DNA of 64,000 bases from contig JAPLXC010000007.1 of NCBI GenBank assembly GCA_026396275.1, positions 37,084 through 101,083 on the forward strand. The letters run 5' to 3'. Position numbers and translations under genes: made by a program. Positions 6,332-45,617 of this stretch are shown piece by piece. The stretch comes from Candidatus Moraniibacteriota bacterium (lineage in GTDB: Bacteria > Patescibacteriota > Minisyncoccia > Moranbacterales > JAPLXC01). The notes under the pieces were generated by a model. It was not told the origin of the DNA and made no database searches. It worked only from the letters and a program-made list of their open reading frames with translations. Position 1 is the first letter of the stretch; every line of letters starts with the position of its first letter.

Positions 6332-6364
6332 TCCATCAAAAGGGCTTTCTTTGGTGGATATTTT
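6332..6364 (+). terminator. hairpin (10-bp stem, 1 mismatch) followed by T-rich tract downstream of 6037..6258
   Basis: atccatcaaaagggctttctttggtggat then attttaata. Confidence 0.4.
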
Positions 6365-6437
6365 AATAACAAAACTTGAAGCTTGAAACGTAAAAATAAA
6401 TTTGTTTCATGTTTTATGTTACATGTTACATGAACTA

Positions 6438-6884
6438 ATGCTCTACGAACTTTGTTACCTCGTCGGTGAATCCAATGAGCCCAAACTGGAAGAAATAAAA
6501 AAGGAAGTGGCAGCTATCGTCACCCAGACAGGAGGCATTTTTCAGGAACCCCAAATTATTGAAAAAAGAAAAATGTCTTATAAAATAAAAGGACAGTTTC
6601 GGGGAACATACGCTGCCCAGCGTTTTGAAATACCGGAAAAAGATTTTTCTGAACAAAAGCCCGGGGAGGCAAATGCTATCCAGGCCATAACCAAAAAGCT
6701 GAATCTTGACCAGAACATCCTTCGCTTTATTATCGTAAAAACCGATGATCTTCCTGAACTTAGGCCGAAGGAAATTGCTCCCAGAGAAAAAGTAGTCGCT
6801 GCACCGGTCAAAAGAAAAGATAAGGAGAAAACCGCGCCGGCTAAAAGCATTGACGAGAAATTAGAGGAAATTTTAAACATATAA
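6438..6884 (+). CDS. rpsF: 30S ribosomal protein S6
   Basis: MLYELCYLV...AAIVTQTGGIF...ILRFIIVKTDD matches bS6; ORF-track start at 6402 lies inside an upstream palindromic repeat, the third ATG (6438) fits the S6 N-terminus. Confidence 0.85.
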   Translation: MLYELCYLVGESNEPKLEEIKKEVAAIVTQTGGIFQEPQIIEKRKMSYKIKGQFRGTYAAQRFEIPEKDFSEQKPGEANAIQAITKKLNLDQNILRFIIVKTDDLPELRPKEIAPREKVVAAPVKRKDKEKTAPAKSIDEKLEEILNI

Positions 6885-6955
6885 TTCACAAAACATGAAA
6901 CATGAAACATGAAACAATTAATGTTACATGTTGTATGCTACATGTTATATGACGT

Positions 6956-7408
6956 ATGAACGTCAACAAAGCAATCTTAGTCGGCCGCTTAACCCGCGAT
7001 CCCGACATCCGCACCACTCAATCCGGACAAACCGTGGTCACGATAGGGCTGGCCACCAACACTTTCTGGACCGACAAAAGCGGCCAGAAACAGGAAAGGA
7101 CAGAATTTCACAATGTTGTTTTGTGGGGACGCCTCGCCGAAATTGCCGGCCAATATCTGACCAAAGGGCAGGAGGCCTATTTTGAAGGTCGTCTTCAAAC
7201 CAGAACCTACACCGGCAAAGACGGCGTGGAGCGAAGAGCAACTGAAATTATCGCCGAGAATATGCAGCTGGGCAGCCGTCCGCGAGGGGAAGGTGTGTCT
7301 CCGTCCTCTGCCGCTGCGGCGCAAAAAAAAGAACTGACTGAAGAAATCCCCACTATCAACCTTGACGAAGAGCAGGGAGAAGTGAAAATTGAGAATGTCC
7401 CGTTTTAA
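6956..7408 (+). CDS. ssb: single-stranded DNA-binding protein
   Basis: MNVNKAILVGRLTRDP...HNVVLWGRLAE OB-fold motifs and acidic C-terminal tail ending NLDEEQGEVKIENVPF. Confidence 0.9.
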   Translation: MNVNKAILVGRLTRDPDIRTTQSGQTVVTIGLATNTFWTDKSGQKQERTEFHNVVLWGRLAEIAGQYLTKGQEAYFEGRLQTRTYTGKDGVERRATEIIAENMQLGSRPRGEGVSPSSAAAAQKKELTEEIPTINLDEEQGEVKIENVPF

Positions 7409-7493
7409 TAACTATCCTCGCATGCGACATATAGCATAAAACACGCAATAATGGAGAATGTTTTATGTTACATATTTCGTGTTACGTGAAAAT

Positions 7494-7700
7494 ATGGAAG
7501 CAAAAATCTGCCACTTTTGCGATCAAAAGATGGATAAAATCGACTATAAAGACGCCTACCTTTTGCGCCGGTTTATGAATTCGCAGGGGAAAATCTATCC
7601 GCCCCGCCGGCACGGAACGTGCTCCAAACACCAGCGAACTCTGGTTCGGGCTATCAAAAGAGCCAGAATTATGGCATTGGTGCCGTTTACAGTTAAGTAA
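7494..7700 (+). CDS. rpsR: 30S ribosomal protein S18
   Basis: MEAKICHFCDQK...YLLRRFMNSQGKI...RAIKRARIMALVPF; true start is the internal ATG at 7494. Confidence 0.9.
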   Translation: MEAKICHFCDQKMDKIDYKDAYLLRRFMNSQGKIYPPRRHGTCSKHQRTLVRAIKRARIMALVPFTVK

Positions 7701-7772
7701 AATCATGAAACATAAAACACGAAACATGTAACAATAAGTTACAAATGTTTTATGTTGTATGCTACATGGAAT

Positions 7773-8330
7773 ATGTTGGGTATTTCTGAAATCAAAACCG
7801 GAAAAAACATTGTCCTAGACGGCGAGCCATACGCTGTGCTTTATCACGAACATTCCAAAATCGGGCGAGCCGGAGCGGTACTGCGCACTAAAATAAAAAA
7901 TCTGGTGACCGGCGCAGTACTTGAAAAAACTTTCCAAGGAGCAGATAAAGTTGAAGAGGCGGACATTAGCAAATCCAAAGCGCAGTATTTATATAGAGAA
8001 GGAAATAGTTATTTTTTTATGGATACTGAAAGTTATGATCAATTTTCATTGCCGGATAAAGTATTGGAAAACGCAGTAAATTACCTCATTGAAGGAACCG
8101 AAGTTACCATTCTCAATTTCAACGAAAATTCCATAAATGCGGAACTGCCGATAAAAATGAAACTGAAAGTTGTCGATGCTCCGCCGGGAATCAAAGGCGA
8201 CACAGCTTCCTCGGGCGGAAAATCAGTAACCGTGGAGACGGGAATGAAAGTAACCACTCCTCTTTTTGTTAAGGCCGGTGATGAAATAATAGTAAACACT
8301 GAAACGGGAGAATATGTCTCCCGGGCATGA
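7773..8330 (+). CDS. efp: elongation factor P (Arg-type loop: SKIGRAGA)
   Basis: KTGKNIVLDGEPYAVL...three-domain length; Arg at the position equivalent to E. coli Lys34. Confidence 0.9.
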   Translation: MLGISEIKTGKNIVLDGEPYAVLYHEHSKIGRAGAVLRTKIKNLVTGAVLEKTFQGADKVEEADISKSKAQYLYREGNSYFFMDTESYDQFSLPDKVLENAVNYLIEGTEVTILNFNENSINAELPIKMKLKVVDAPPGIKGDTASSGGKSVTVETGMKVTTPLFVKAGDEIIVNTETGEYVSRA

Positions 8331-18645: not shown

Positions 18646-18841
18646 ACTTATTTTTTTATAAATAAAAAATAACTTATATATATATTATCACAACCGTTTA
18701 GTGATTATTACTCATCTGCTCCGAACGCTGAACGCCTGTCCGCCTTTGGCGGAAAATCTTTACCCCTTAGTGCCCCGCCACAGCGGGACTACTACTGGGG
18801 TTTCCACCGCCGCCGAATTCCTGCCTGCCGGCAGGCAGGTT

Positions 18842-19423: not shown

Positions 19424-19506
19424 ATAATAAAGTTGAGGTAAGCTTGTCCCGTGATCCGCCGCGGATTTTACGGGGTAATTAATTACGTAATTCTGAATAT
19501 TACACT

Positions 19507-19534
19507 ATCCTTAAATTCTCAAGTATTTAAGGAT
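19507..19534. promoter_or_regulatory. 28-bp inverted repeat atccttaaattctcaagtatttaaggat (copy 1, downstream of ArsR gene / upstream side of the hydrolase gene)
   Basis: 10-N8-10 palindrome, exact second copy at 19843..19870. Confidence 0.6.
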
Positions 19535-19538
19535 GGTG

Positions 19539-19844
19539 TTATTCTGTCTGGAATGTTTTTAAGAATCGGACGAACATTTTACCATAAGGCGACAGGGCGT
19601 GCTCCACAAAATTGCCGCGATATTTTTTGTTAATAAGCCCCGCCTGATAAAGTCTTCTGGTATGCTCGCTGATTGTTTTCTCATTGGCTTTCAGTTTTTT
19701 AACTATATTATCAAGTGTAATGTCTTTTTGTTCATCTATTAGTAGCAATATATCAATGCGGTGATGGTTGGCCATTCCTTTCAAGTGCCGCTCCATTTGT
19801 TTTGCCGTTTTGATTTTCCTCATATTAACATTATACACAACCAT
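19539..19844 (-). CDS. ArsR/SmtB family transcriptional regulator
   Basis: RIDILLLIDEQKDITLDNIVKKLKANEKTISEHTRRLYQAGLINKK winged-helix signature. Confidence 0.7.
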   Translation of the reverse strand: MVVYNVNMRKIKTAKQMERHLKGMANHHRIDILLLIDEQKDITLDNIVKKLKANEKTISEHTRRLYQAGLINKKYRGNFVEHALSPYGKMFVRFLKTFQTE

Positions 19845-19870
19845 CCTTAAATTCTCAAGTATTTAAGGAT
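19843..19870. promoter_or_regulatory. 28-bp inverted repeat (copy 2) overlapping ArsR start region: candidate autoregulatory operator
   Basis: Identical to 19507..19534. Confidence 0.6.
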
Positions 19871-20062
19871 AGTTTAGTAGTTAGGTGTTTCTTGAAAACT
19901 CCTATTCAACCCAATCCCAATGCCCAAAGGCAAAATCAAAACTCCGGCAAGGATGATTATAGATTTTTTGGAGATGAACATGAACGAAATTTATTTATTA
20001 TATTTGTGCCAGCGACTTGTCCCGAGTTTATTGAGGGAAGCTGGCGCGCCGCTTTCATATTT

Positions 20063-20434: not shown

Positions 20435-20584
20435 TCAAAATTTTTGAGATAAGCTTACCCCGCCTGCCCCGTAGGGAAACTTTGTTTCTCCTTTGGGGTA
20501 GTGAGTCCCTGACTCTACTACTGGGATTATACCACCAAAATAAAAACCGGCCTCATTGCGAGAGCCGGTATAGAAACCGCGAGA

Positions 20585-21389: not shown

Positions 21390-21704
21390 TATCTCCTCCT
21401 TTACAATCCCTCAATGTTTATGGTTTATTGTTAATAAAAAGAACTGGTGCTTAATCTTAGCGCAGTTTACCATTTTGTCAAATAAAAACCAGCCGCTTGG
21501 GGCTGATGGGAAGGTAAGCCTGCCCCGAAGTGAGCCCTGCTCTACTTCTGGGGTTTACCCCGTACCGCCTTACTGGTGCGTGGGTAATTTTTATCCGCCT
21601 TTGGCGGAAATTACGTAATTTTCCAGCCGCCGAATTTCGTGCCAGCAAAGCTGCCGCGCCGCCCAAGATTAATGCAATTTCTCCTAATTTTCTTGTTGGC
21701 CAAG

Positions 21705-26238: not shown

Positions 26239-27771
26239 ATGATCTCAAAAAGATTATCAAAAAAACAAAAGGAAGTTCTTGATTTTATTACCGCTTTTCA
26301 ACAAAAGCGCGAGTATTCCCCTTCCCTAGAAGAAATCGCTAAACATTTCAATATTGCAATTCCCACTGCTCACCAACATGTGCAGGTATTAAAAAGAAAA
26401 GGATTTATAAGCGCAAGAAAGGGGGAAAAACGATCTATCTCAGTAAAAGAAAAAGCTTCAATGGTACAAGTCCCGCTGCTTGGTGTTATTACTGCTGGCC
26501 AGCCGATTGAAGCGATAGAAAATAAAGAGACAATTGCTGTACCACAAAATAAACTCTCCCATTCCGGAGAATTTTATGCTTTACGAGTTTTGGGCAATAG
26601 CATGATTGATGAAAATATAAAAGACGGCGATATTGTTTTAGTAAAAAAACAAGAAGTTGCAGAAAATGGACAAAAAGTCGTTGCTTTAATTGATAACTAT
26701 GAAGCAACACTGAAAAAATTTTATAAGGAAAGAGGACACATTCGGTTGCAACCAGCTAATAAGAACATTGAACCAATAATTATAAAAAGGGATAGAGAAC
26801 TAACTATTCAGGGCATTGTAATAGATGTAATTAAAAATGAAGAGGAATTGCAAGCGGAAGAAATTTTAACTGCAGGAAAGGTTAAAAGACACTTAAAACT
26901 TCCTCTTAATAAAATTATTTTAGGAGACGCTGTTAGAGAATTAAGAAAATTACCGGATGAAAGTTGCGATATTATTATTATCGACCCGCCTTATAATATC
27001 GGAAAGGATTTCGGAAATAATATTGATAAAAGAGAATTAAGCGAATATATTGAATGGAGCAAAAAATGGATTAATGAATCTATAAGAGTAATGAAATCAA
27101 CTGGTACAATGTTTATTTACGGATTTAGTGAAATTTTAGCGTACTTGTCAGTTGAAATTCCTATAAATAAGCGATGGCTCATTTGGCACTATACTAACAA
27201 AAATGTTGCATCTTTAAATTTTTGGCAAAGAAGCCACGAAGCAATTATTTGCGCCTGGAAAGAAAAACCAATTTTCAACCGGGACGAAGTGAGAGAGCCA
27301 TATACTGAAGGATTTCTAAACGGCGCCGCTGGAAAAGTACGTAAAGGAACTATGGGAAGATTCAGCCGAGGTGGACAAGAAACTGTTTATAATGCACACG
27401 AAGGTGGCGCGTTACCAAGAGACGTTATAAAAATACCCGCTCTAGCAGGAGGAGCGGGAATGGTTGAAAGGTGGTTTTTATGCAAAACATGCAATGACGT
27501 TTTTGAGCCACGTGAATTAAAAAAACACCAAAATCATGAGATTATAAAACATCCGACACAAAAACCCTTGGAACTTTCAAAAAAACTTATAAAATCAGCC
27601 TCCTCAAGCAAAGAAGGCGTTATTTTGGTACCATTCGTCGGCAGCGGTTCAGAATGCGTCGCAGCCAAAGAACTTGGTAAAAATTATCTTGGTTTTGAAT
27701 TAAACCCAGATTATGTAAAGTTGGCCGAAGAGTGGTTAAAATCTACAAAGACTGCTCCTAAGTTATTTTAA
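26239..27771 (+). CDS. LexA-like repressor (wHTH + S24 peptidase) fused to N6/N4 DNA methyltransferase (beta class, DPPY then FxGxG)
   Basis: N-term: KQKEVLDFI...VPLLGVITAGQP (Ala-Gly site), GNSM catalytic Ser, VVALIDNYEATLKKF catalytic Lys; C-term: IIIDPPYNIGKDF (motif IV) and VPFVGSGSECVAAKELGKNYLGFEL (motif I). Confidence 0.85.
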   Translation: MISKRLSKKQKEVLDFITAFQQKREYSPSLEEIAKHFNIAIPTAHQHVQVLKRKGFISARKGEKRSISVKEKASMVQVPLLGVITAGQPIEAIENKETIAVPQNKLSHSGEFYALRVLGNSMIDENIKDGDIVLVKKQEVAENGQKVVALIDNYEATLKKFYKERGHIRLQPANKNIEPIIIKRDRELTIQGIVIDVIKNEEELQAEEILTAGKVKRHLKLPLNKIILGDAVRELRKLPDESCDIIIIDPPYNIGKDFGNNIDKRELSEYIEWSKKWINESIRVMKSTGTMFIYGFSEILAYLSVEIPINKRWLIWHYTNKNVASLNFWQRSHEAIICAWKEKPIFNRDEVREPYTEGFLNGAAGKVRKGTMGRFSRGGQETVYNAHEGGALPRDVIKIPALAGGAGMVERWFLCKTCNDVFEPRELKKHQNHEIIKHPTQKPLELSKKLIKSASSSKEGVILVPFVGSGSECVAAKELGKNYLGFELNPDYVKLAEEWLKSTKTAPKLF

Positions 27772-28470
27772 TTTTGAATCAATTTCTTCTTTCTTTTGTT
27801 CAAAAATGTAGGGCTCAAAAATAACAAAGCCATTCGAGAATACACGAAGCATTTTTGTGTCTAGATAGTTTTTCTTAAAAGTAAGATATGATTTTAAAAA
27901 TCCCGTCCCTCTTTTCTTTTTAGGATGCAAAATGGTTTTAAGATCAGGTACTTCATAGCGGATTGGAATTGTTATGCCCGGAATCGGCTCTTTCGGCTTA
28001 TGACTACGCCCCATTACACCACTATTTGATTTCTTCTTTACATCATAATTAATAACTAATTCCCTATATTGTACCTGAATGTCAGCCCCTTTATGATCAA
28101 GTTCCTCTGACATATTGACCGTATTTTTTCCAAATACTGACTCGGCAACATATCCTGCATGCATTTGAGTAATAAGCCCTGCCCATGTCCTATATATACG
28201 CGCCTCGATTCCTTTCTTAAAACAACTAGGACACATCCCAATTTTCTTTCGAAACTCGCTGAGTTTTTTTCTATTTTCCCTTCTATAAATATCATAGAAG
28301 GCGTTAAAATCAACAAAGTTCTTTTCATCCCAGTAAATTCGATATAACAGCTTAATAGCTTGAATATTCTTTGGCAGATTCATTTCCACTATTTTAATAG
28401 AACTATACTTTTCTCTGTAAGCACTTAGGTTAACTGTTTTCAAAAAATCACTAAATTTTTGTAGATACAT
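27763..28470 (-). CDS. putative restriction endonuclease partner (PD-(D/E)xK-like), convergent and overlapping with methyltransferase gene
   Basis: GADIQVQYRELVINYDVKKK fits D-x(n)-D-x-K; convergent 9-nt overlap with MTase 3' end as in many type II RM pairs; assignment is inferential. Confidence 0.4.
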   Translation of the reverse strand: MYLQKFSDFLKTVNLSAYREKYSSIKIVEMNLPKNIQAIKLLYRIYWDEKNFVDFNAFYDIYRRENRKKLSEFRKKIGMCPSCFKKGIEARIYRTWAGLITQMHAGYVAESVFGKNTVNMSEELDHKGADIQVQYRELVINYDVKKKSNSGVMGRSHKPKEPIPGITIPIRYEVPDLKTILHPKKKRGTGFLKSYLTFKKNYLDTKMLRVFSNGFVIFEPYIFEQKKEEIDSKLK

Positions 28471-28514
28471 ATATTTAACAAATAATTTACTTTTTCCAAT
28501 CTTTTAAATATTTC

Positions 28515-29108
28515 TTACAAATTTTTGATTTCCTCTACGATTTCCGGGAAGTGTTCTTGGTTGAAATGCTGGCGGTCTTCAAAAATATGCGCTTTAACAC
28601 TTGGTAAATCTTTCTTATATCTTTCAACTTCATTAAAAGGCACAATTGGATCATCCTTGCTTTGATACAAATGAATTATTGGGCATTGCTTTTCAACTCC
28701 TTCGAGCGATTTTTTAAAAACAAAATCACTAATCTCATGGGTTTCTGAATGTGGCGGAGCTACCAAAAAAAGAGCTTTTATTTTTTTAGGAAATTCGTTT
28801 TCAGATAAATATTTAACCAGAAAGATGCCTCCTTGCGAATGTCCGATTAAAATCGGTTCACTTTCCATAAATGGAAACATTCTTTTAAACCATATTTTCC
28901 ATTCCTCATACCTGGCATTATTTGAATTGGGCATACGGGGCGCAAGCACTTGGAATTCTCCTCCCAATTCCGATTGCAGGTGAATTTTCCAATCTTTTTT
29001 GGGCAGAAATGATTCAATCGTTACTTCCTGATTTTTAAGATCATCCAAAAATTTTTTGTACGAATCAAACGAACTTCCGCCATGTATAATAATAACTTGT
29101 TGTTTCAT
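28515..29108 (-). CDS. alpha/beta hydrolase, YdeN/RBBP9-like (second, divergent paralog)
   Basis: VIIIHGGSS ... LIGHSQGG. Confidence 0.6.
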   Translation of the reverse strand: MKQQVIIIHGGSSFDSYKKFLDDLKNQEVTIESFLPKKDWKIHLQSELGGEFQVLAPRMPNSNNARYEEWKIWFKRMFPFMESEPILIGHSQGGIFLVKYLSENEFPKKIKALFLVAPPHSETHEISDFVFKKSLEGVEKQCPIIHLYQSKDDPIVPFNEVERYKKDLPSVKAHIFEDRQHFNQEHFPEIVEEIKNL

Positions 29109-29273
29109 ACTGTAAATTTTTTACTTTCTCTAATCCCATCCTTCGCCATAAAGCTTCCACCGACGCCAAGGCTTTGGCGGACAAGTCGGAAGGACATGCC
29201 TAATTATTTACTTCTATAATCTCTAATCACCCCGTAAAATCCGCGGCGGATAACGGGGCAAGCCAACCCTCCC

Positions 29274-29293
29274 CCCAGTTAAATAATACTTCC
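29274..29293 (+). repeat. 20-nt direct repeat cccagttaaataatacttcc (copy 1)
   Basis: Exact second copy at 29905..29924; the pair brackets gene 29327..29806. Confidence 0.7.
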
Positions 29294-29326
29294 GCAAATT
29301 AGCGGGACAGGCATTCAGGGTAAAAT

Positions 29327-29806
29327 CTAAATTTGCCGGGTTTTCAGATTTTGATACTCTAAGTAAGTTAATGTTACGACAAAAATGTCCAAAATGGTTA
29401 AGACAATCAGCCAGGCAGAATGAGAAATTGAATAGCGATACATCTGGTAGAAAATAAATATTCCAAATACGGCGATTGCGAGCGGATAAGCCCACAATTT
29501 TTTTCTAAAAAGGGCGGCAATCAGAAATATTTTTATGAGCCCGTGGCTCAAGAGGAACAAACCTCCAAAAATTTGGCTGCTCACGGAAAAGCCGCGGGCC
29601 GCGTGAACCAGAAAATTGGCAAAGAGGTCTTTCGGATCCTCGCTTAATTCGTTTTGAGTAAGGAGTCTTACCAAATAGTTAAGGGTTTCAGGGCGAATGA
29701 AAAACAGCAGTATTCCGCCGATAATTTCCAAAATTCCATTCAGCCCTTTAAGAAGGATGCCGACCCGAAACGTGTCATGGATTACCTTGGCATACATTTT
29801 ATCCAT
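29327..29806 (-). CDS. hypothetical membrane protein (DUF2127-like)
   Basis: 159 aa, 4 TM helices. Confidence 0.45.
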   Translation of the reverse strand: MDKMYAKVIHDTFRVGILLKGLNGILEIIGGILLFFIRPETLNYLVRLLTQNELSEDPKDLFANFLVHAARGFSVSSQIFGGLFLLSHGLIKIFLIAALFRKKLWAYPLAIAVFGIFIFYQMYRYSISHSAWLIVLTILDIFVVTLTYLEYQNLKTRQI

Positions 29807-29904
29807 GAATAAAGTATAAATTCTTTACCGCAAAAACACCAGCCACTAACCACTTCCCAACATCGTACGCCAAGAAATAAAAACTAAGGGGCAGGCGGGG
29901 TAAA

Positions 29905-29924
29905 CCCAGTTAAATAATACTTCC
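29905..29924 (+). repeat. 20-nt direct repeat cccagttaaataatacttcc (copy 2)
   Basis: See 29274..29293. Confidence 0.7.
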
Positions 29925-29926
29925 TT

Positions 29927-31105
29927 TTATTTTTCAAACAATTTTAAGTATCCAGAAAACACAAATAACCGGTTTCTTTTAAATCCGGTGATTTCTTTAA
30001 AAATCCCGATCTTTTCAAATTGTTTGACCAGCGTGCTTGCTGAAGGATGAGTTATTTGTAATCTTTTAGCTATCTGTTTAGTGTTTAAGATGGGCTGAGA
30101 ATACAAATGTTTCAGCAGTTCTTGTCCTATTTTTGCTCTTTTACCAAGAGACATAATTTTTTGTTCGGATTGATGTCTAAGAGCAATAATTTTTTCAAAC
30201 GTCAATTTGCCGTTTTTTGCCGTTTCCGCAACACCAACCAAAAAAAACTTGATCCAGTGTTCCAAGTCATTTGAAGTTCTCACAACGGTAAGCGCATCGT
30301 AATAAGCACCTTTGTTTCTTTCAAAGAAATCCGATAAATATAGCGTTGGTTTTGAGAGAATCCTCTGTGACACAAGATAGAGAGTAATAAGTAATCGGCC
30401 AATGCGACCATTGCCATCTAAAAATGGATGTATGGTTTCAAATTGATAATGACTAATAGCAATCTTAATCAGGTGAGGCATATCAATTTTCTTATTATGC
30501 CAAAACTTTTCTAAGTCGCTAAGCAAATACGGCATTTCATTGGGATGCGGCGGAATGAATACGGCGTCTTTCAATGTTGCGCCGCCAATCCAGTTTTGAC
30601 TGGTGCGTATTTCTCCGGAATCTTTATGTTTGCCGCGAACACCAGTTAATAAAATCTTATGAGTATCTTTAAGAAGTCGCATTGAAAGCGGAAGTTTTTC
30701 TAATTCAGCAATTGCATAATCCATTGCCTTTGTATAATTTTGAACTTCTGCCCAATCATCTCTTCTTTCGGGATTGATTTCTTCTTTAGGTAAAAGCGCC
30801 TCATCCATTCCCGTTTTAGTCCCTTCAATTCTACTGGACGTTGTTGCCTCTTTGAAAACATGCATGCGGATAAAAAAATCCACATCAGGCACAAGTAAAG
30901 AATAAGCATTCAATTCTCCCAGGTATCGTGTCGCTTCTTCAAGCAATACGTCAATCTTAGGGTCCAACCATTTAAAAGCCACATTGATCAGAGACGGGGA
31001 AAAACTTTTATATTCATATTGCTGTTTATATACGCCTGACTTAAATGTTGTATTTTTCATAATAATTGACTTTACATAAGAATATTTATATTTAAAGTTT
31101 AGCAC
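29927..31105 (-). CDS. Fic family protein (Fic/DOC domain with C-terminal winged helix)
   Basis: [14 protein letters not shown] Fic motif. Confidence 0.85.
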
Positions 31106-31344
31106 CTAACTTTACATATGTCAATTCATGTTAAAAGTTGGATTGTGGATAAAAGCGGGCAACCGCCTGCCTGCCCGCTTCGCAGTGAGGCGACCAGGCC
31201 TCGTAAAATTGACACCATAACGGGGTAAACAATCCATATCAGACGCTATATTATCCGGTAAAATCACGTGTTCAAAATACCAAACTATATCACCTAGTAA
31301 TTGCGGGTAATTACGAATTTTATGACGCCTTCTTTACGAATCTA

Positions 31345-31722
31345 TCAAAAATCATCCTCGCTTTTTTCATGAAAATATTTAAACCTCAATTCGCTGTAGC
31401 GCGGGTCGCTGACTATCTTATTAATTTTTTTTGATGTGTGTTTAATCTGAACATACAAGTCGCGCAATTCTTTTTCCATAGCCGCGATGAGATTTTTGCC
31501 GGTTTTCAGTTCAACGTAATTAAGCTTTTTTCTCATTTCAAAATCGGCCTGCTCCTTTTTTACCCTTTCAAGAATCCGCTTCTTTTCCGTATACTCTTTT
31601 TTGAGCGCAAGATACGCGCCGATCTCCATTTTTACGGCCTCTAGCTCCTCACGAAATTCCTCGTCGCCTTTTTCGCTTTTTTCACCAGCCGGAAACTGGA
31701 AATTTTCTAATTTTTGAGCCAT
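31345..31722 (-). CDS. hypothetical helical protein (downstream of AbrB/MazE-like gene)
   Basis: 125 aa, charged coiled-coil-like. Confidence 0.4.
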   Translation of the reverse strand: MAQKLENFQFPAGEKSEKGDEEFREELEAVKMEIGAYLALKKEYTEKKRILERVKKEQADFEMRKKLNYVELKTGKNLIAAMEKELRDLYVQIKHTSKKINKIVSDPRYSELRFKYFHEKSEDDF

Positions 31723-31749
31723 AAATTTACTTCTTCCAATCTTTAATCA

Positions 31750-31799: not shown

Positions 31800-31976
31800 T
31801 TATCTATTTTTATTCCTATAATCCCTAATAACAATTCCTCCCTTAATCCTTTTCACCCTCACTCGCTGTTTTTCCTTCCAGCCGAGCGCATCGGTCATCT
31901 CTTTAGGTAAAGTCGTGGCCAAGCTCGTTTTGCCCAGCCGCACCAATTTTCTCGTGTTTTTGTCCTTTAATTTCAT
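31800..31976 (-). CDS. AbrB/MazE/SpoVT-family DNA-binding protein (antitoxin-like), 58 aa, unannotated
   Basis: MKLKDKNTRKLVRLGKTSLATTLPKEMTDALGWKEKQRVRVKRIKGGIVIRDYRNKNR: swapped-hairpin signature (VRLGKT.L..P......LG...G..V.V); palindrome atatacttaagtatat in its leader. Confidence 0.55.
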   Translation of the reverse strand: MKLKDKNTRKLVRLGKTSLATTLPKEMTDALGWKEKQRVRVKRIKGGIVIRDYRNKNR

Positions 31977-32016: not shown

Positions 32017-32052
32017 ATCCTACGCCAAAAAGGCCTGGAAATCAAATAAAAA
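32017..32052 (-). promoter_or_regulatory. 36-nt exact repeat containing sigma70-like promoter on minus strand (TTGATT-17-TAGGAT), copy 1
   Basis: atcctacgccaaaaaggcctggaaatcaaataaaaa; identical copy at 32536..32571. Confidence 0.5.
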
Positions 32053-32137: not shown

Positions 32138-32365
32138 TTAGATGTTCATCCAGTGTTTCAGCAGGTACATATTTTCTTTAATTGAAATAGCAAGATAAAA
32201 CAGTAGAAAAGCTATGAGTATGGCAGTGTAATAAATCTCTTTGCGCTTTCGTGCCGCGGCATCAATCCGGCAACCCGTCTCAATGGCAAAAATACCCAGG
32301 CCGCAAATGACGACTTTGCCAAAGATGACGCCTCCCAATCCCCACAGTTCGTAATAAATTCCCAA
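32138..32365 (-). CDS. possible small membrane protein (TTG start; weak)
   Basis: 75 aa with two hydrophobic segments; no ATG start; downstream of second promoter copy. Confidence 0.2.
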   Translation of the reverse strand: MGIYYELWGLGGVIFGKVVICGLGIFAIETGCRIDAAARKRKEIYYTAILIAFLLFYLAISIKENMYLLKHWMNI

Positions 32366-32392
32366 GACAGGGCCCTTTTCTGCCGCTCCTCC

Positions 32393-32473
32393 TCATCCTG
32401 ACTGAATGACTAAAACAGTATAAACCAGATCAACAAAACAAAGCAGCAAGAAACACATCGCCAATCTACTCAC
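32393..32473 (-). CDS. possible 26-aa hydrophobic peptide (GTG start, strong SD aaaggaggtgg)
   Basis: MSRLAMCFLLLCFVDLVYTVLVIQSG; SD 5 nt upstream of GTG. Confidence 0.25.
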   Translation of the reverse strand: MSRLAMCFLLLCFVDLVYTVLVIQSG

Positions 32474-32535: not shown

Positions 32536-32571
32536 ATCCTACGCCAAAAAGGCCTGGAAATCAAATAAAAA
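32536..32571 (-). promoter_or_regulatory. 36-nt exact repeat / promoter copy 2
   Basis: Identical to 32017..32052. Confidence 0.5.
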
Positions 32572-32634: not shown

Positions 32635-33219
32635 TTAAAAGAGGGTTAATATTTTTCTAAAAAAGGACTTTTTTTCTTTGGCAGTTCTCTGCCCTTCTTT
32701 TTTAACATCAACAATCTGCCCATATCCGATTTCTTTGAAATAAGCGATAGCCGTGGACTGGCCTAATATGCCATGAACCATCCTTTCCCTTGCTACACAG
32801 TATTTTGATTTAACTGTGCCAATGAAATTATTGGCACTTATTTTCCGGGAAAATTCTAAGGAAAATTCATTGTTGAACACAGTAAGCAAGGCTTCGATAT
32901 ATGCCAATAAGTAGGAACTACTATCGAAAGAAATCCCGTTTTTCGCAATTAAGTTTCTCTGCTCCAAGGATAACCCCATCTCTTCTAGATATGATATTAT
33001 CTCTTCTTTGTCCTGATCTGATATTTTGCAATCCCCGCTCATGATTGGAAAATCGAAACGCACAGACACATTGCATTCAAAAACAATGAGTCTGATCTCC
33101 TGTTTACCTATCCGCTTTGATAATTTCACTAAGTTGAACTGCATGGCATTCCTCCTTTCATAAAAAATTTCAAATAACTGCTGAAAACAGAATATATCAC
33201 AGTTTTTATTTTTTGTCAA
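32635..33219 (-). CDS. hypothetical protein
   Basis: 194 aa (likely starts at internal MQFNLVKL); hairpin terminator ccctaaa...tttaggg downstream. Confidence 0.4.
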   Translation of the reverse strand: MTKNKNCDIFCFQQLFEIFYERRNAMQFNLVKLSKRIGKQEIRLIVFECNVSVRFDFPIMSGDCKISDQDKEEIISYLEEMGLSLEQRNLIAKNGISFDSSSYLLAYIEALLTVFNNEFSLEFSRKISANNFIGTVKSKYCVARERMVHGILGQSTAIAYFKEIGYGQIVDVKKEGQRTAKEKKSFFRKILTLF

Positions 33220-33386: not shown

Positions 33387-36300
33387 TTAGGGTGATTTTT
33401 TTCGAAATCCGGTTCCGGCGGGAATGAGCCGTCCGATGATGACGTTTTCTTTCAACCCCCGCAACCGGTCTTCCTTGCCGATAACCGCGGCGTTGATGAG
33501 AACGCGCGCCGTTTCTTGAAAAGACGCCGCCGAAAGAAATGATTCAGTGGAAAGTGCCACTTTGGTAATGCCCATAATTATCTGTTCGCCTTTGGCTGCT
33601 GCGCCTCCGGTTTTCTTTATTTCCCTGTTGGCCTCTTCAAACTGATCTTTTTCCACAATGTCTCCCGGCAGCAGTTCAGTGTCTCCCGGGTCAAGAATTT
33701 TAATCCGACTCAACATCTGGCGGATGATAACCTCAATGTGCTTGTCGTTAATTCCTTCACCCTGGGAAGCATAAATTTCCTGAATTTCCCGGGTGATATA
33801 GCGCTGCACCTCTTCTCTTCCCAGCAGGTGGTAAAGTTTCTTAAGATCAATATTTCCCGCGTTGATCAAGGCGCCTTTGGCAATTGCCTGCCCTTTCTTC
33901 ACTAAAAGAGTTAACTCCGCCGGCACCGCATATTCCCGAATATCTTTTTTCTTGCCCTCGGTCTCGATTATAACAGTTATGGTTTTGTGATTTTTATTGT
34001 TAATATCCGCCACCTTTCCGTCCACTTCGGAAATAAGGCCTTCTCCCTTGGGCGGGCGGGCTTCAAATATTTCCTCCACCCGGGGAAGACCCTGGGTGAT
34101 GTCGGTTCCGGCCACTCCCCCGATATGGAAGGTTCTCATAGTGAGCTGGGTTCCCGGTTCTCCAATAGCCTGGGCGGCCACAATTCCGACGGCCTGGCCC
34201 AAGTGGACTACTTCATTTCTTCCCAGATCAATGCCGTAACATTTCTGGCATACTCCGCGCTTCGTCTTGCAGGTTATCACGCTGCGAATTTTCACCTTTT
34301 CAATATTAAGGCCTTCGATTTTTTTGGCATCTTCGCGGCTAATCAGGATATCTTTCCCGACAATTACTTTTTTGCCTTTGGGATCAGTGATGTCCTCAAT
34401 GGTCACTCTTCCCTCAACGCGGGCGGCAAAACTTTGCCCGATTTTATCGGAATCGGCTTTGTAAAGATAAGATCCTTCTTTGTCTTTGCAATCCTCTTCC
34501 CGGACAATCACGTCTTGAGCCACATCCACCAGGCGGCGGGTGAGATATCCGGCGGTGGAAGTACGGAGAGCCGTGTCGGCCATTCCCTTCCGGGCGCCGT
34601 GGGTGGAAATAAAATATTCAAGCACGTTGAATCCTTCTTTGAAAGAACTCTTCACGGGAAGTTCAATGGTCTCCCCGGTGGGACCGGCCACCAATCCTTT
34701 CATTCCCGTCATCTGCACTACCACCGATTCGCTTCCCCGGGCCTTGGAATGGATCATGAAATGAACCGCCCCTTCTTTATCCAGAGAATTACGAACCGCT
34801 TCCGCGATTTTATTCTTGGCTTCGTTCCAGACCTCGATCACCCGGTTCTTTCTTTCTTCTTCAGTCAGCAGTCCCATATTGTACTGCTGATTAATCGTTG
34901 CCACACTTTGCTCGGCCTGAGCCAGCACTGCTTTTTTCTCTTCCGGAACTTTCAAATCATCCATTCCCCAGCTGATGCCGGAACAGGTAACTGCCTGGAA
35001 GCCCAGATTTTTAATCCGGTCAATGTAATAAGCCGTTTTTTCCTGCCCAATTTCCTGGAGTAATCTAGCCACCAATCCCTTAAGTTCTTTCTTGGTCATT
35101 TCCTCATTAATGAAGCGCAACTGTTCGGGAAGGGCGTCGTTCAGGAGAACTCTGCCCACCGTTGTTTCAATAATCTTTTCGTTGAGCAACAGTTTTACTT
35201 GAGCATTAACTCTTACTATTCCCAGCTGATAAGCGTGAATGGCTTCTTCTTCCGAAGAGAATGCTTTTCCTTCTCCCTTTACGCCTTTTTTAATATGAGT
35301 GAGGTAATAAATTCCCAGTACCACATCCTGGGAAGGAACGGTGATGGGCTCACCGGTAGCGGGCTTAAGCAAGTTTTTAGTTGAAAGCATTATCTGGGAA
35401 CTTTCTTCCCGGGCCTGATCGGTAAGAGGAACGTGAACGGCCATTTGGTCGCCGTCAAAGTCAGCATTAAAGGCGGCGCACACCATCGGATGAATCTGAA
35501 TGGCTTTCCCTTCAATGAGCACCGGCTGGAAGGCCTGGATGGAAAGGCGGTGCAGAGTCGGCGCCCGGTTGAGGAGCACGTAGTGGCGTTCGATAATCTC
35601 ATCCAGAATTTCATAGGCCTCTTCGGCTTCAGCGTCCACCATTCTCCCGGCGGTGCGGACGTTGTGAGCGTATTCTTTTTCAATGAGTTGGTTAATGATA
35701 AATGGTTTGAATAGTTCAAGGGCCATTTTTTTCGGCAGCCCGGCTTGATGCAGTTTGAGCTGCGGTCCTACTATAATCACGCTCCGACCGGAGTAATCAA
35801 CTCTTTTTCCCAGTAGGTTCTGGCGAAAGCGTCCCTGTTTGCCTTTGAGAGAATCCGCCAGTGACCGGAGTGGCCGGCGCTGTCCGGTGGAGGCAGCCAC
35901 AGCCATCTGGCGCCGGCGGGCGCTATTGTCAAAAAGAGCGTCTACTGCTTCCTGCAGCATCCGTTTTTCATTGCGGGTAATTACTTCCGGAGCTCCCAAG
36001 TCAATGAGTTTTTTGAGACGATTGTTACGGTTGATAATCCGCCGGTAGAGATCGTTAAGGTCGGAAGTGGCAAAGCGGCCGCCATCAAGTGCAACCATTG
36101 GGCGAAGGTCGGGAGGAATGACTGGAATAACAATTGGCAGCATCCATTCAAGACGCAGTTTGGCTTTTTTAAACCCTTGAAAAAGTTTCAAGCGTTTGAG
36201 AAATTTTTTCCGATCGGTTATCTCTTCAGATTCCAACTCTTTCTTGAGGCGCTGGATCTGATCATCAACATTCATTTTCTCCAGAACCCGGCGGACAGCT

Positions 36301-43606: not shown

Positions 43607-43623
43607 AAAATATCTTCAGGATG

Positions 43624-43695
43624 AGCGAGTGATGGGAGTCGAACCCACGTCTTCAGCTTGGAAAGCTGACATAATAGCCGTTATACTACACTCGC
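43624..43695 (-). tRNA. tRNA-Gly (anticodon UCC)
   Basis: 7-bp acceptor GCGAGTG/CACTCGC, anticodon stem TCAGC/GCTGA with loop TTTCCAA, T-arm GTGGGTTCGACTCCCAT. Confidence 0.85.
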
Positions 43696-44282: not shown

Positions 44283-44681
44283 GGGGTTGTCTAGCTTCGA
44301 CATTTTGCACTTTAAAAAATTTGCAAACCGATTATGACAGTCATATCGTTAAACTGCCTGTCAAAATTATAAGTGCAAACTTATACTCAAAAGTAAAGGC
44401 CAGCATCGCGCAAGCGTTTGCTCCGGCTTTTGCTACCGCTTTGGCTTAATTTAAGCTTTAGCCATCGGACTATTGACTCCTTATAAATAGCAACCGGTGC
44501 CAACCATAAGGATAGCCCGCCTGATATTTTCTAAGTTAAGCGGGCAAAATTAAATTAGAAATAGATTAAAAAGATTTTGCTTGTTTATTACTTTTTAGTC
44601 AAAATAAATAAACCGGCTAAGTTTGTAGAAAATTTTTTAAAAGCAACAATGGACGCGAGTGCAATTCTCGCCAACTCCACC
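44283..44681 (+). ncRNA. ssrA: putative tmRNA (SsrA), ~399 nt, tag ORF ...AQAFAPAFATALA*
   Basis: 5' GGGGTTGtctagCTTCGAC resembles tmRNA 5' acceptor/D-loop; 3' GGACGCGAGtgcaattCTCGCcaactccACC = T-arm + complementary acceptor strand (one G-U) + ACC; in-frame gcg caa gcg ttt gct ccg gct ttt gct acc gct ttg gct taa at 44408..44449; adjacent to smpB. Confidence 0.65.
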
Positions 44682-44682
44682 T

Positions 44683-45228: not shown

Positions 45229-45319
45229 GCCATAAAACACGTAACATGAAACATGTAACACAGTAAAGTCGTTAAACGGAAAAATCAAATGTTATATGTT
45301 TTATGTTTCATGAATAATT
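45229..45319 (+). repeat. ~90-nt palindromic intergenic element (catgaaacatgtaaca ... tgtta(t/c)atgtt...tttcatg), copy A, abutting rpmI start
   Basis: Near-identical copy at 45518..45617; shorter relatives upstream of rpsF, ssb, rpsR, efp. Confidence 0.7.
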
Positions 45320-45517: not shown

Positions 45518-45617
45518 AAATCATGAAACACTTAACATGAAACATGTAACAAAGTAAAGTCGTTAAACGGAAAAACCAAATGTTACATGTTATGTGTTTT
45601 ATGCTCCATGAATAATT
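45518..45617 (+). repeat. ~90-nt palindromic intergenic element, copy B, abutting rplT start
   Basis: Shares loop agtaaagtcgttaaacggaaaaa(t/c)caaa with copy A. Confidence 0.7.

Follow-up and report, generated by a model that had tools for sequence, protein, structure and literature searches.

Integron cassettes and the pdif modules of Acinetobacter each consist of one promoterless gene between short conserved sites, within accessory-gene arrays. The attC site, at the 3' end of an integron cassette, is an imperfect palindrome (R''-L''...L'-R') of 57 to 141 nt, the integron core consensus is GTTRRRY, and an intI integrase gene and attI are expected close to the array. The XerC/D dif-like (pdif) site is 28 bp long, with two 11-bp partially palindromic arms around a 6- to 8-bp center, and occurs in alternating orientation. 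Direct repeats around a gene may also be the attL and attR boundaries of an integrase island or the target site duplication (TSD) of a transposon, insertion sequence (IS), or MITE, and REP/BIME-like modules and microhomology-bounded gene indels in defense and accessory islands provide two further points of comparison. An integrase island encodes a tyrosine or serine integrase within or next to itself, its vacant attB site has one copy of the core, and that core frequently coincides with the 3' end of a tRNA or tmRNA; a transposon has terminal inverted repeats immediately within the TSD and either a transposase or a family of nonautonomous copies. Here, we compare these systems with a locus at which two exact copies of a 20-mer lie on either side of one predicted membrane-protein gene, immediately downstream of a gene of the SoFic defense family.

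The DNA analyzed is a stretch of 64 kb (here referred to as the window) from a 121.7-kb contig of a Candidatus Moranbacteria (CPR) MAG, and proteins identical to three of its ORFs are deposited under that name. A preliminary description had reported exact 20-nt direct repeats, unexpected by chance, that bracket a single membrane-protein gene, and our analysis bears out each of these points. The 20-mer CCCAGTTAAATAATACTTCC occurs exactly twice in the window, both times on the plus strand (Table 1), and its edges are sharp, the adjoining bases differing immediately on either side of both copies. The 611 nt between the copies comprise a single minus-strand ORF with a full-length Pfam match to DUF2127, flanked by 33 nt at its 3' end and 98 nt at its 5' end. 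No third copy with three or fewer mismatches is present in the window, where the next-best sites have at least five. Dinucleotide shuffles matched the 20-mer in none of 100 cases, and in mononucleotide shuffles (n = 20) exact direct repeats no more than 4 kb apart had maximum lengths of 13 to 18 nt. The pair is one of about 10 short exact repeats of at least 17 nt in the window, nearly all of them intergenic. The 20-mer is AT-rich, with no hairpin, no internal dyad, and no internal repeat, and a reading as a LexA box was dropped because it has no dyad. Extension of the repeat into its flanks was also considered and rejected (P = 0.12 and P = 0.22), and neither the likeness of the 16-mer “S” (Table 1) to “S-prime” nor that of the GCYTGCCCC-TTA stretches was significant. 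For searches, a query sequence for repeat-bearing loci of this SoFic clade is GGAAGTNTTATTTAANTGG.

Table 1. Positions (window coordinates) of the repeat copies, the flanking genes, and the intergenic elements around them
Feature	Position	Strand	Sequence	Description
Repeat copy R1	29274..29293	+	minus-strand (gene-sense) reading GGAAGTATTATTTAACTGGG	L014 counterpart 19/20 identical; 33 nt downstream of DUF2127 stop, 166 nt upstream of hydrolase start
Repeat copy R2	29905..29924	+	L014 counterpart GGAAGTGTTATTTAATTGGG	L014 counterpart 18/20 identical; begins 2 nt past SoFic stop codon, 98 nt upstream of DUF2127 start
Left half of L014 spacer	29896..29904	-	TTTACCCCG	L014 form TTTACTCCG
Right half of L014 spacer	29294..29302	-	CTAATTTGC	L014 form TTAAATTGC
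Window-only segment (vs L014)	29306..29895	-		590 bp: 5' leader, DUF2127 ORF, tail of about 20 nt
DUF2127 predicted membrane protein gene	29327..29806	-		159 aa, Pfam PF09900
SoFic module	29927..31154	-		Gene 29927-31060 (377 aa) and 94-nt promoter region
Ser_hydrolase (alpha/beta hydrolase)	28515..29108	-		Missing in L014; directly after SoFic in L019 (50% aa identity)
TaqI-like type II restriction endonuclease	27763..28470	-		L014 homolog comes directly after SoFic
LexA-domain/MTase fusion	26239-27771	+		Convergent with TaqI-like endonuclease
GC-rich 16-mer “S”	29888..29903	-	TTACCCCGCCTGCCCC	Spans left breakpoint; second exact copy at 20455-20470 (+)
45-nt GC-rich hairpin module	29224..29268	-	core CCCGTTATCCGCCGCGGATTTTACGGGG	Second copy at 19437-19481, 89% identical, opposite orientation
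Leader motif	29109..29137	-	GGGATTAGAGAAAGTAAAAAATTTACAGT	Just upstream of hydrolase start

Outside the window, the 20-mer is as rare as chance predicts. Exact copies were found in two unrelated genomes among 596 Gb of GTDB representative genomes and on two contigs of JGI metagenomes, one of which is the same Ignavibacteriaceae sequence, while IMG/VR held no exact copy and only chance 18-mer matches. All matches in public collections are accounted for by the Ignavibacteriaceae contig (twice), a Duganella genome, and one further locus (L004), and these counts agree with the chance expectation for a 20-mer. The L004 match (26 nt, inside a GT4 glycosyltransferase coding sequence) was judged to be fortuitous (extension probability roughly 0.01 to 0.03), and tblastx found no glycosyltransferase remnant in the window. 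The repeat is missing from 11 of the 12 SoFic loci L007 to L018, with L014 as the exception, and is absent from the flank after SoFic in L019 and L020. We therefore rejected a widespread promoter/terminator motif, an identity of the 20-mer that the preliminary description had itself set against its reading, together with a REP-type motif: beyond the pair, no window copy exists at four or fewer mismatches, and the matches at other loci are at chance level. The observed 20-nt repeat is a true, nonchance, resident feature of the noncoding DNA 3' of SoFic.

Like an integrase island, the locus presents an exact, sharp-edged direct repeat around one gene; however, there is no integrase in the 64 kb and no tRNA target, and a related locus without the gene (L014, described below) keeps two copies of the repeat. 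Pfam searches of gene-like ORFs of at least 90 aa in the window recovered no integrase, transposase, or site-specific recombinase; only RecA and a RusA-like resolvase appeared among recombination-related matches, and the sole tRNA (43623-43695) and the tmRNA (44283-44682) lie about 14 kb from the repeat. Transposons, IS, and MITEs with TSDs differ from the locus, which has neither inverted repeats nor a transposase, and a TSD of 20 bp (or of 36 bp, for a nearby pair) would be atypical in length. Specifically, no terminal inverted repeats were found at the inner ends of the repeat pair, and no copies of the insert ends were found elsewhere in the window except for the 16-mer at 20455-20470. Integron cassettes differ in that the window contains no attC-like fold or intI; the two repeat-bearing intergenic regions fold no better than shuffled sequences (z = +1.52 and -1.00), Rfam gave no match in the island at gathering or relaxed thresholds, and a literature search on integrons in Patescibacteria returned nothing relevant. 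Unlike in a pdif module, only 20 nt are shared here, in direct copies with unrelated flanks, and by inspection a second arm is found at neither copy.

The surrounding intergenic DNA does resemble REP/BIME-like modules, as it is a mosaic of short GC-rich hairpin modules in either orientation, but the 20-mer is AT-rich and hairpin-less, with two copies in 64 kb and none in unrelated genomes beyond chance. The locus behaves like an ordinary microhomology-bounded gene indel of accessory/defense islands. It shares with such indels a foreign gene that is present or absent between 93%-identical flanks, 3 to 5 nt of breakpoint sharing, the lack of a mobility gene, and a low-GC island setting with SoFic, type II restriction-modification (R-M), a KAP/PifA-like NTPase, and a MazE-like antitoxin, and it differs from them in that the indel falls between two copies of an exact 20-mer. 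What survives of the att-type or target-duplication boundaries proposed in the preliminary description is the exact, sharp-edged repeat and the foreign gene, but not an integrase, transposase, terminal inverted repeat, tRNA, attC fold, or single-copy empty site.

The repeat sits in a low-GC defense/accessory island (GC of 0.37, compared with 0.43 in the core) downstream of rpoC, which extends from about position 13 kb of the window to the rpoC stop at 33387. The neighboring genes (SoFic, DUF2127, Ser_hydrolase, and the TaqI-like endonuclease) are all on the minus strand, and other island genes encode a MazE-like antitoxin, a KAP/PifA-like NTPase, and a RusA-like protein. The SoFic protein matches the PADLOC profile PDLC03963 (3.1e-118; residues 16 to 376 on profile positions 5 to 359 of 361) and contains Pfam Fic_N and Fic domains and a C-terminal winged helix-turn-helix (HTH_13/MarR/SoFic-like_C matches). 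We assign the gene to the SoFic single-gene defense family, with a predicted role in defense, at the family level only because its NCBIfam equivalog score of 175 is below the cutoff of 550. The protein keeps 85 to 95% amino acid identity in many CPR lineages and, beyond them, in a Nitrospirota genome. In L007 to L013, L015 and L016, and L020 and L021, DNA homology begins 94 nt before the start codon (79 nt in L020 and L021), ends precisely with the stop codon, and gives way to different genes; in L019 it continues for 4 nt past the stop codon, and the genes that follow SoFic are also different in L017 and L018. These patterns suggest that SoFic is a promiscuously transferred defense gene. Phage and plasmid collections returned matches to the conserved Fic core only, and IMG/VR returned Fic relatives at 50% identity only. 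No homolog of the hydrolase above 71% amino acid identity was found in a search for hydrolase homologs, so its flanks are not informative.

The intergenic DNA of the island is a mosaic of short modules that recur within the window. The 45-nt hairpin module lies upstream of each of two Ser_hydrolase paralogs, a 17-mer hairpin occurs at 18739 and 21594, and the leader motif, which has related copies at 28480-28501 (ahead of the TaqI-like endonuclease gene) and 31720-31741, is found upstream of three genes. About 2 kb from the 20-nt pair, a stretch of 36 nt also occurs as two exact direct copies (32017-32052 and 32536-32571), between which lies a 483-bp segment of higher GC with a small membrane ORF (DUF5658-like) that contains an in-frame TGA; a search for relatives of this locus found none. 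This pair around another small gene hints at a recurrent repeat-generating process. Elsewhere in the same genome, palindromic repeats lie on both sides of a MarR-like gene.

The gene between the 20-nt copies matches PF09900 with an E value of 1.9e-33 (116 bits against a cutoff of 24.3; residues 13 to 151 on profile positions 2 to 140 of 140). An identical protein (P0001) is annotated in a Candidatus Moranbacteria MAG and was deposited from a 121.7-kb contig. The closest other homologs are 79% and 76% identical at the amino acid level and occur in unrelated, non-CPR-looking contexts, and the DNA of two loci (L005 and L006) matches at 81% nucleotide identity in a region confined to window positions 29326-29814. 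In L005, the GC content of the DUF2127 gene is well below that of its flanks. Given these unrelated contexts and the low GC relative to the flanks in L005, the DUF2127 lineage moves between phyla, and the gene, foreign by its sequence relationships, behaves as a horizontally acquired unit that is present or absent as a single gene. Composition was rejected as a marker of the insert, since its GC of 0.41 is intermediate between those of the island (0.37) and the core genome (0.43). A literature search on DUF2127 returned nothing relevant.

DUF2127 is lacking in both related SoFic loci found, L014 and L019. The former (Logan SRR22387966, 1857 bp) is the sole SoFic locus that still matches the window past the stop codon, and its order is SoFic TAA, AA, GGAAGTGTTATTTAATTGGG, TTTACTCCGTTAAATTGC, GGAAGTATTATTTAACTGG, a GC-rich element, the leader motif GGGGATTGGGGAAAGTAAAAAATTT, and the start of the TaqI-like endonuclease. 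By blastn, L014 positions 110-1358 align without gaps to window positions 31144-29896 at 92.9% identity, spanning SoFic, R2, and the next 9 nt, and L014 positions 1356-1386 align to window positions 29305-29275 at 93.5%, spanning 9 nt and R1; the two alignments overlap by 3 nt. Both repeat copies are therefore present in L014, separated by 18 nt with no gene between them, and the repeat pair predates the split of the window and L014 lineages. The arrangement is no simple tandem duplication, as the spacer does not recur after R1. The R2 counterpart in L014 (R2') has two substitutions, one of them within a -10-like hexamer. In the window, CTAATTTGC and the first bases of R1 form a small hairpin, followed by TATTATTT. 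The breakpoints of the 590-bp window-only segment are ambiguous by 3 to 5 nt because CCG/CCCGC stands at both ends (29896-29900 and 29302-29306); the shared bases are CCG by the alignment and CCCGC by the window sequence. The 20-mers are not the junctions of the DUF2127 presence/absence event; the breakpoints lie inside the pair.

In L019, SoFic (89% nucleotide identity) is followed by 147 nt and then by the orthologous hydrolase, with no DUF2127 and no 20-mer. The spacer after SoFic contains a 31-nt perfect palindrome that resembles the 20-mer only marginally (P = 0.02, for one locus out of six tested). L014 lacks the hydrolase and has one leader motif, compared with two that flank the hydrolase in the window. 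The single-copy empty site foreseen in the preliminary description was not found in these relatives: L014 has both copies and L019 has neither. The cassette-like architecture claimed there can be retained insofar as DUF2127 acts as a single-gene presence/absence unit, but no recombination system or single-copy empty site accompanies it.

The explanation that we favor, and regard as probable with some reserve, combines a resident repeat pair with presence/absence of DUF2127 by illegitimate recombination inside the pair. The polymorphism would have arisen through microhomology-type recombination at CCG/CCCGC, inside the 18-nt spacer. Its direction is not polarized because a search for an outgroup carrying the repeat found none, the only repeat-bearing relative being L014, one short contig of about 1.9 kb. 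Insertion, as a capture of foreign DUF2127 in the window lineage, is slightly favored over loss in the L014 lineage. On the side of insertion are the foreignness of the gene, its absence from both relatives, and the need for a deletion to end within 9 nt of each repeat. On the side of deletion are the nontandem arrangement in L014, the contiguous copy of S at 20455-20470, and the position of both endpoints in GC-rich stretches. Since the two repeats 18 nt apart do not amount to a plain tandem duplication, they have the look of a duplication that encloses something, and a contiguous S is more readily explained by a deletion in L014 than by a junction that is chimeric by chance. Under the deletion reading, a 20-bp target duplication at the arrival of the gene could be the origin of the pair.

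That possibility can be taken further. A tentative alternative, to which we give less than even standing, has two steps. A 611-bp one-gene segment would first have entered 3' of SoFic and duplicated 20 bp of its target, whether through staggered-break repair, through template switching, or as a small circle that carried the 20-mer and integrated by a single crossover. In the L014 lineage, 590 bp between the CCCGC stretches would then have been deleted, so that 9 nt survive on either side. The identity of the copies (20/20), their sharp edges, and the nontandem arrangement in L014 would all follow, and the left junction looks native rather than chimeric because the 16-mer S is contiguous elsewhere in the window. 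The CCCGC at both endpoints of the presumed deletion points the same way, since the 611 nt contain just four instances of CCCG, as do the exact 36-nt pair around another small gene 2 kb away and the two leader-motif copies around the hydrolase where L014 has one. However, searches for a recombinase, inverted repeats, or an att-like structure found none of them, no relative shows an empty site with a single copy, and DUF2127 is absent from L014 and L019 alike. Moreover, the deletion must end no more than 9 nt from each repeat, bypassing a longer 7-nt repeat (TTTACCC), and we know of no transposition chemistry that target duplications of 20 and 36 bp would fit.

A more speculative extension, which we consider improbable, is that this CPR genome captures single promoterless genes without a dedicated recombinase, duplicating 20 to 36 bp of the target each time. 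DUF2127 with its 20-nt pair, the DUF5658-like gene with its 36-nt pair, and perhaps the hydrolase with its leader-motif pair would be three products, and the L014 form would have come about later by deletion. Template switching could account for such captures, as could the integration of small circles by a single crossover at short homologies, and the duplicated stretch would carry promoter/terminator pieces, such that the incoming gene and the resident downstream gene might both be expressed. We keep the idea of recurrent insertion at this low level mainly because of the second exact pair of 36 nt. If true, recurrent insertions with 20- to 36-bp duplications and no recombinase would be an undescribed gene-capture route in organisms poor in classical mobile elements.

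The repeat may also have a function in expression. In gene-sense orientation it reads GGAAG-TATTAT-TTAACTGGG, in which TATTAT is -10-like. The L014 spacer together with the R1 counterpart was called as a sigma-70-like promoter (TTTACT-17-TATTAT) and as a terminator-like hairpin with a T-rich tail. In R2 of the window, TATTAT lies 16 nt after a TTGTTT in the 3' end of SoFic and about 100 nt upstream of DUF2127, and R1 follows the small hairpin after the DUF2127 stop. With its -10-like TATTAT and a T-rich run after a hairpin, the 20-mer is probably part of a promoter/terminator between SoFic and the next gene, as consensus scans tentatively suggest, and this predicted role would account for the retention of both copies. 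The duplicated regulatory site that the preliminary description offered as its second reading gains from the promoter/terminator-like call in L014 but loses from the consensus scan of the window, where the repeat copies were not called as promoter or terminator; it remains tentative.

A stricter form of the regulatory reading is that the 20-mer is a cis-regulatory protein-binding site, two copies of which are kept by selection with the gene lying between two operators; candidate binders, by domain content, are the winged-helix C-terminal domain of SoFic and the LexA-domain methyltransferase of the adjacent R-M system. We think this unlikely. In favor of the reading, neither copy is less conserved between the window and L014 than the 93%-identical DNA around it, SoFic has a C-terminal helix-turn-helix, the MarR-like gene of the same genome is flanked by palindromic repeats, and the 31-nt palindrome of L019, related to the 20-mer at P = 0.02, occupies the same post-SoFic position. 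Nonetheless, the 20-mer has no internal dyad or repeat, it is missing after SoFic in L007, L008, L015, L017, and L020, and the spacing of the copies shifts from 38 to 631 nt with neither copy lost. The two substitutions in R2', including the one in the -10-like hexamer, also count against a conserved operator.

Two last readings are very improbable. An integron-like cassette array with the 20-mer within attC sites would suit the co-oriented neighboring genes and their cassette-like functions, and GTTAAAT inside the 20-mer fits the core consensus, but there is no IntI or tyrosine recombinase in 64 kb, the intergenic regions have no imperfect-palindrome attC fold (z of about +1.5 and -1.0), the heptamer is changed in R2' (ATTAAAT), and the indel breakpoints lie away from it. 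An assembly artifact, in which a foreign DUF2127 fragment was threaded in at a shared 20-nt overlap, is suggested by the similarity of the ORF to genes from other phyla and by the equality of 20 with k - 1 for k = 21, a commonly used first k-mer size, but can be dismissed because the 9 nt next to the inner edge of each repeat have their native counterparts in the L014 spacer and the foreign junction shares 3 to 5 nt, while a 20-mer on both sides requires a real molecule with two copies or a circle, and the identical protein was deposited from a 121.7-kb contig.

The preferred reading, a resident repeat with a gene indel inside it, makes this locus a cautionary case: an exact direct repeat around one gene mimics a mobile cassette, yet the repeat was in place before the gene polymorphism arose. 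Comparison with one relative places the real breakpoints at a microhomology of only a few bases. The locus also shows how a defense island is assembled in a reduced CPR genome, where a SoFic gene conserved at 85 to 95% stands beside type II R-M that differs between relatives, and where single genes come and go between the reused intergenic modules of the island.

Presence or absence of the Ser_hydrolase gene in the low-GC defence/accessory island is a second gene-sized indel with short repeats as its bounds. Three island genes have their start codons 5 to 10 nt downstream of a leader motif, two copies of which flank the hydrolase gene in the window; a single copy is found in L014, the closest relative, which lacks the hydrolase. 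Coordinates of this and the other features described here are collected in the table.

Features of the island and of the translation-related region (window positions unless a locus is named)
Feature	Positions	Strand	Details
LexA-like module and N6/N4 DNA methyltransferase fusion	26239-27771	+	
Leader motif	28480-28501, 29109-29137, 31720-31741; L014 1418-1445		GATTRGRRAAAGTAAAWWATTT
SoFic-type defence-gene module (Fic)	29927-31154		loci L007-L021 compared
Second exact direct repeat, 36 nt	32017-32052, 32536-32571		ATCCTACGCCAAAAAGGCCTGGAAATCAAATAAAAA
Small membrane ORF	32138-32470	-	within segment 32053-32535
GC-rich hairpin modules	29224-29268 and 19437-19481; 18739-18755 and 21594-21610; 20455-20470		
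Palindrome, 28-34 nt	19504-19537, 19840-19873		ATCCTTAAATTCTCAAGTATTTAAGGAT
Perfect palindrome, 31 nt	L019 1281-1311		CCCAGTATTACAATAATATTGTAATACTGGG
Direct repeat, 82 nt, 90% identical	45231-45312, 45522-45603		between infC and rplT

The SoFic protein is 85 to 95% identical in many CPR lineages and in one Nitrospirota genome, and in most of the other loci compared, DNA homology ends exactly at the SoFic stop codon. In three relatives, the next gene after SoFic encodes a type II restriction enzyme, whose type varies (TaqI-like in L014, EcoRI-like in L017 and L018). The TaqI-like endonuclease gene of the window is convergent with the gene for the methyltransferase fusion, in which the LexA-like module is complete, with both a DNA-binding domain and an S24 peptidase; this fusion is an unusual architecture for a restriction-modification methylase.

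Between the copies of the 36-nt repeat is a 483-bp segment of higher GC, which has an unknown ORF (32635-33219) on one side and a MazE-like gene (31800-31976) on the other. On our reading of the sequence, the 36-mer contains TTGATT-17-TAGGAT in the gene sense, and at its downstream copy (32017-32052), the first 10 nt form the T-run of a terminator hairpin. The small membrane ORF within the segment carries an in-frame TGA (...VIQSG*GGAAEKGPVLGIYYELW...). Its read-through form has a weak DUF5658 match (E = 0.0017) that spans the stop, and its homologues are only distant 103-aa proteins, with the alignment starting from residue 37. Either the ORF is a pseudogene or it comes from a TGA-recoding lineage.

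The island reuses GC-rich hairpin modules across several of its intergenic regions, with no fixed orientation to the genes. Two Ser_hydrolase paralogues, only distantly related to one another, each have a copy of one 45-nt hairpin upstream. The 28- to 34-nt palindrome occurs on either side of a MarR/ArsR-like gene (101 aa, 19539-19844) and is probably this regulator's operator, with a duplicate upstream of the gene that follows. In L019, a second relative, the 31-nt palindrome occupies the loop of a GC hairpin and is flanked on both sides by GGGTCAA; the same hairpin is present without interruption in the next intergenic region of that contig, and the palindrome looks like a tiny palindromic insertion.

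Outside the island, CATGAAACATGTAACA-type motifs occur both in the 82-nt repeat and in the intergenic DNA surrounding rpsF, ssb, and efp (6355-7775). Judged from sequence, translation-related genes seem to have this regulatory motif in common.
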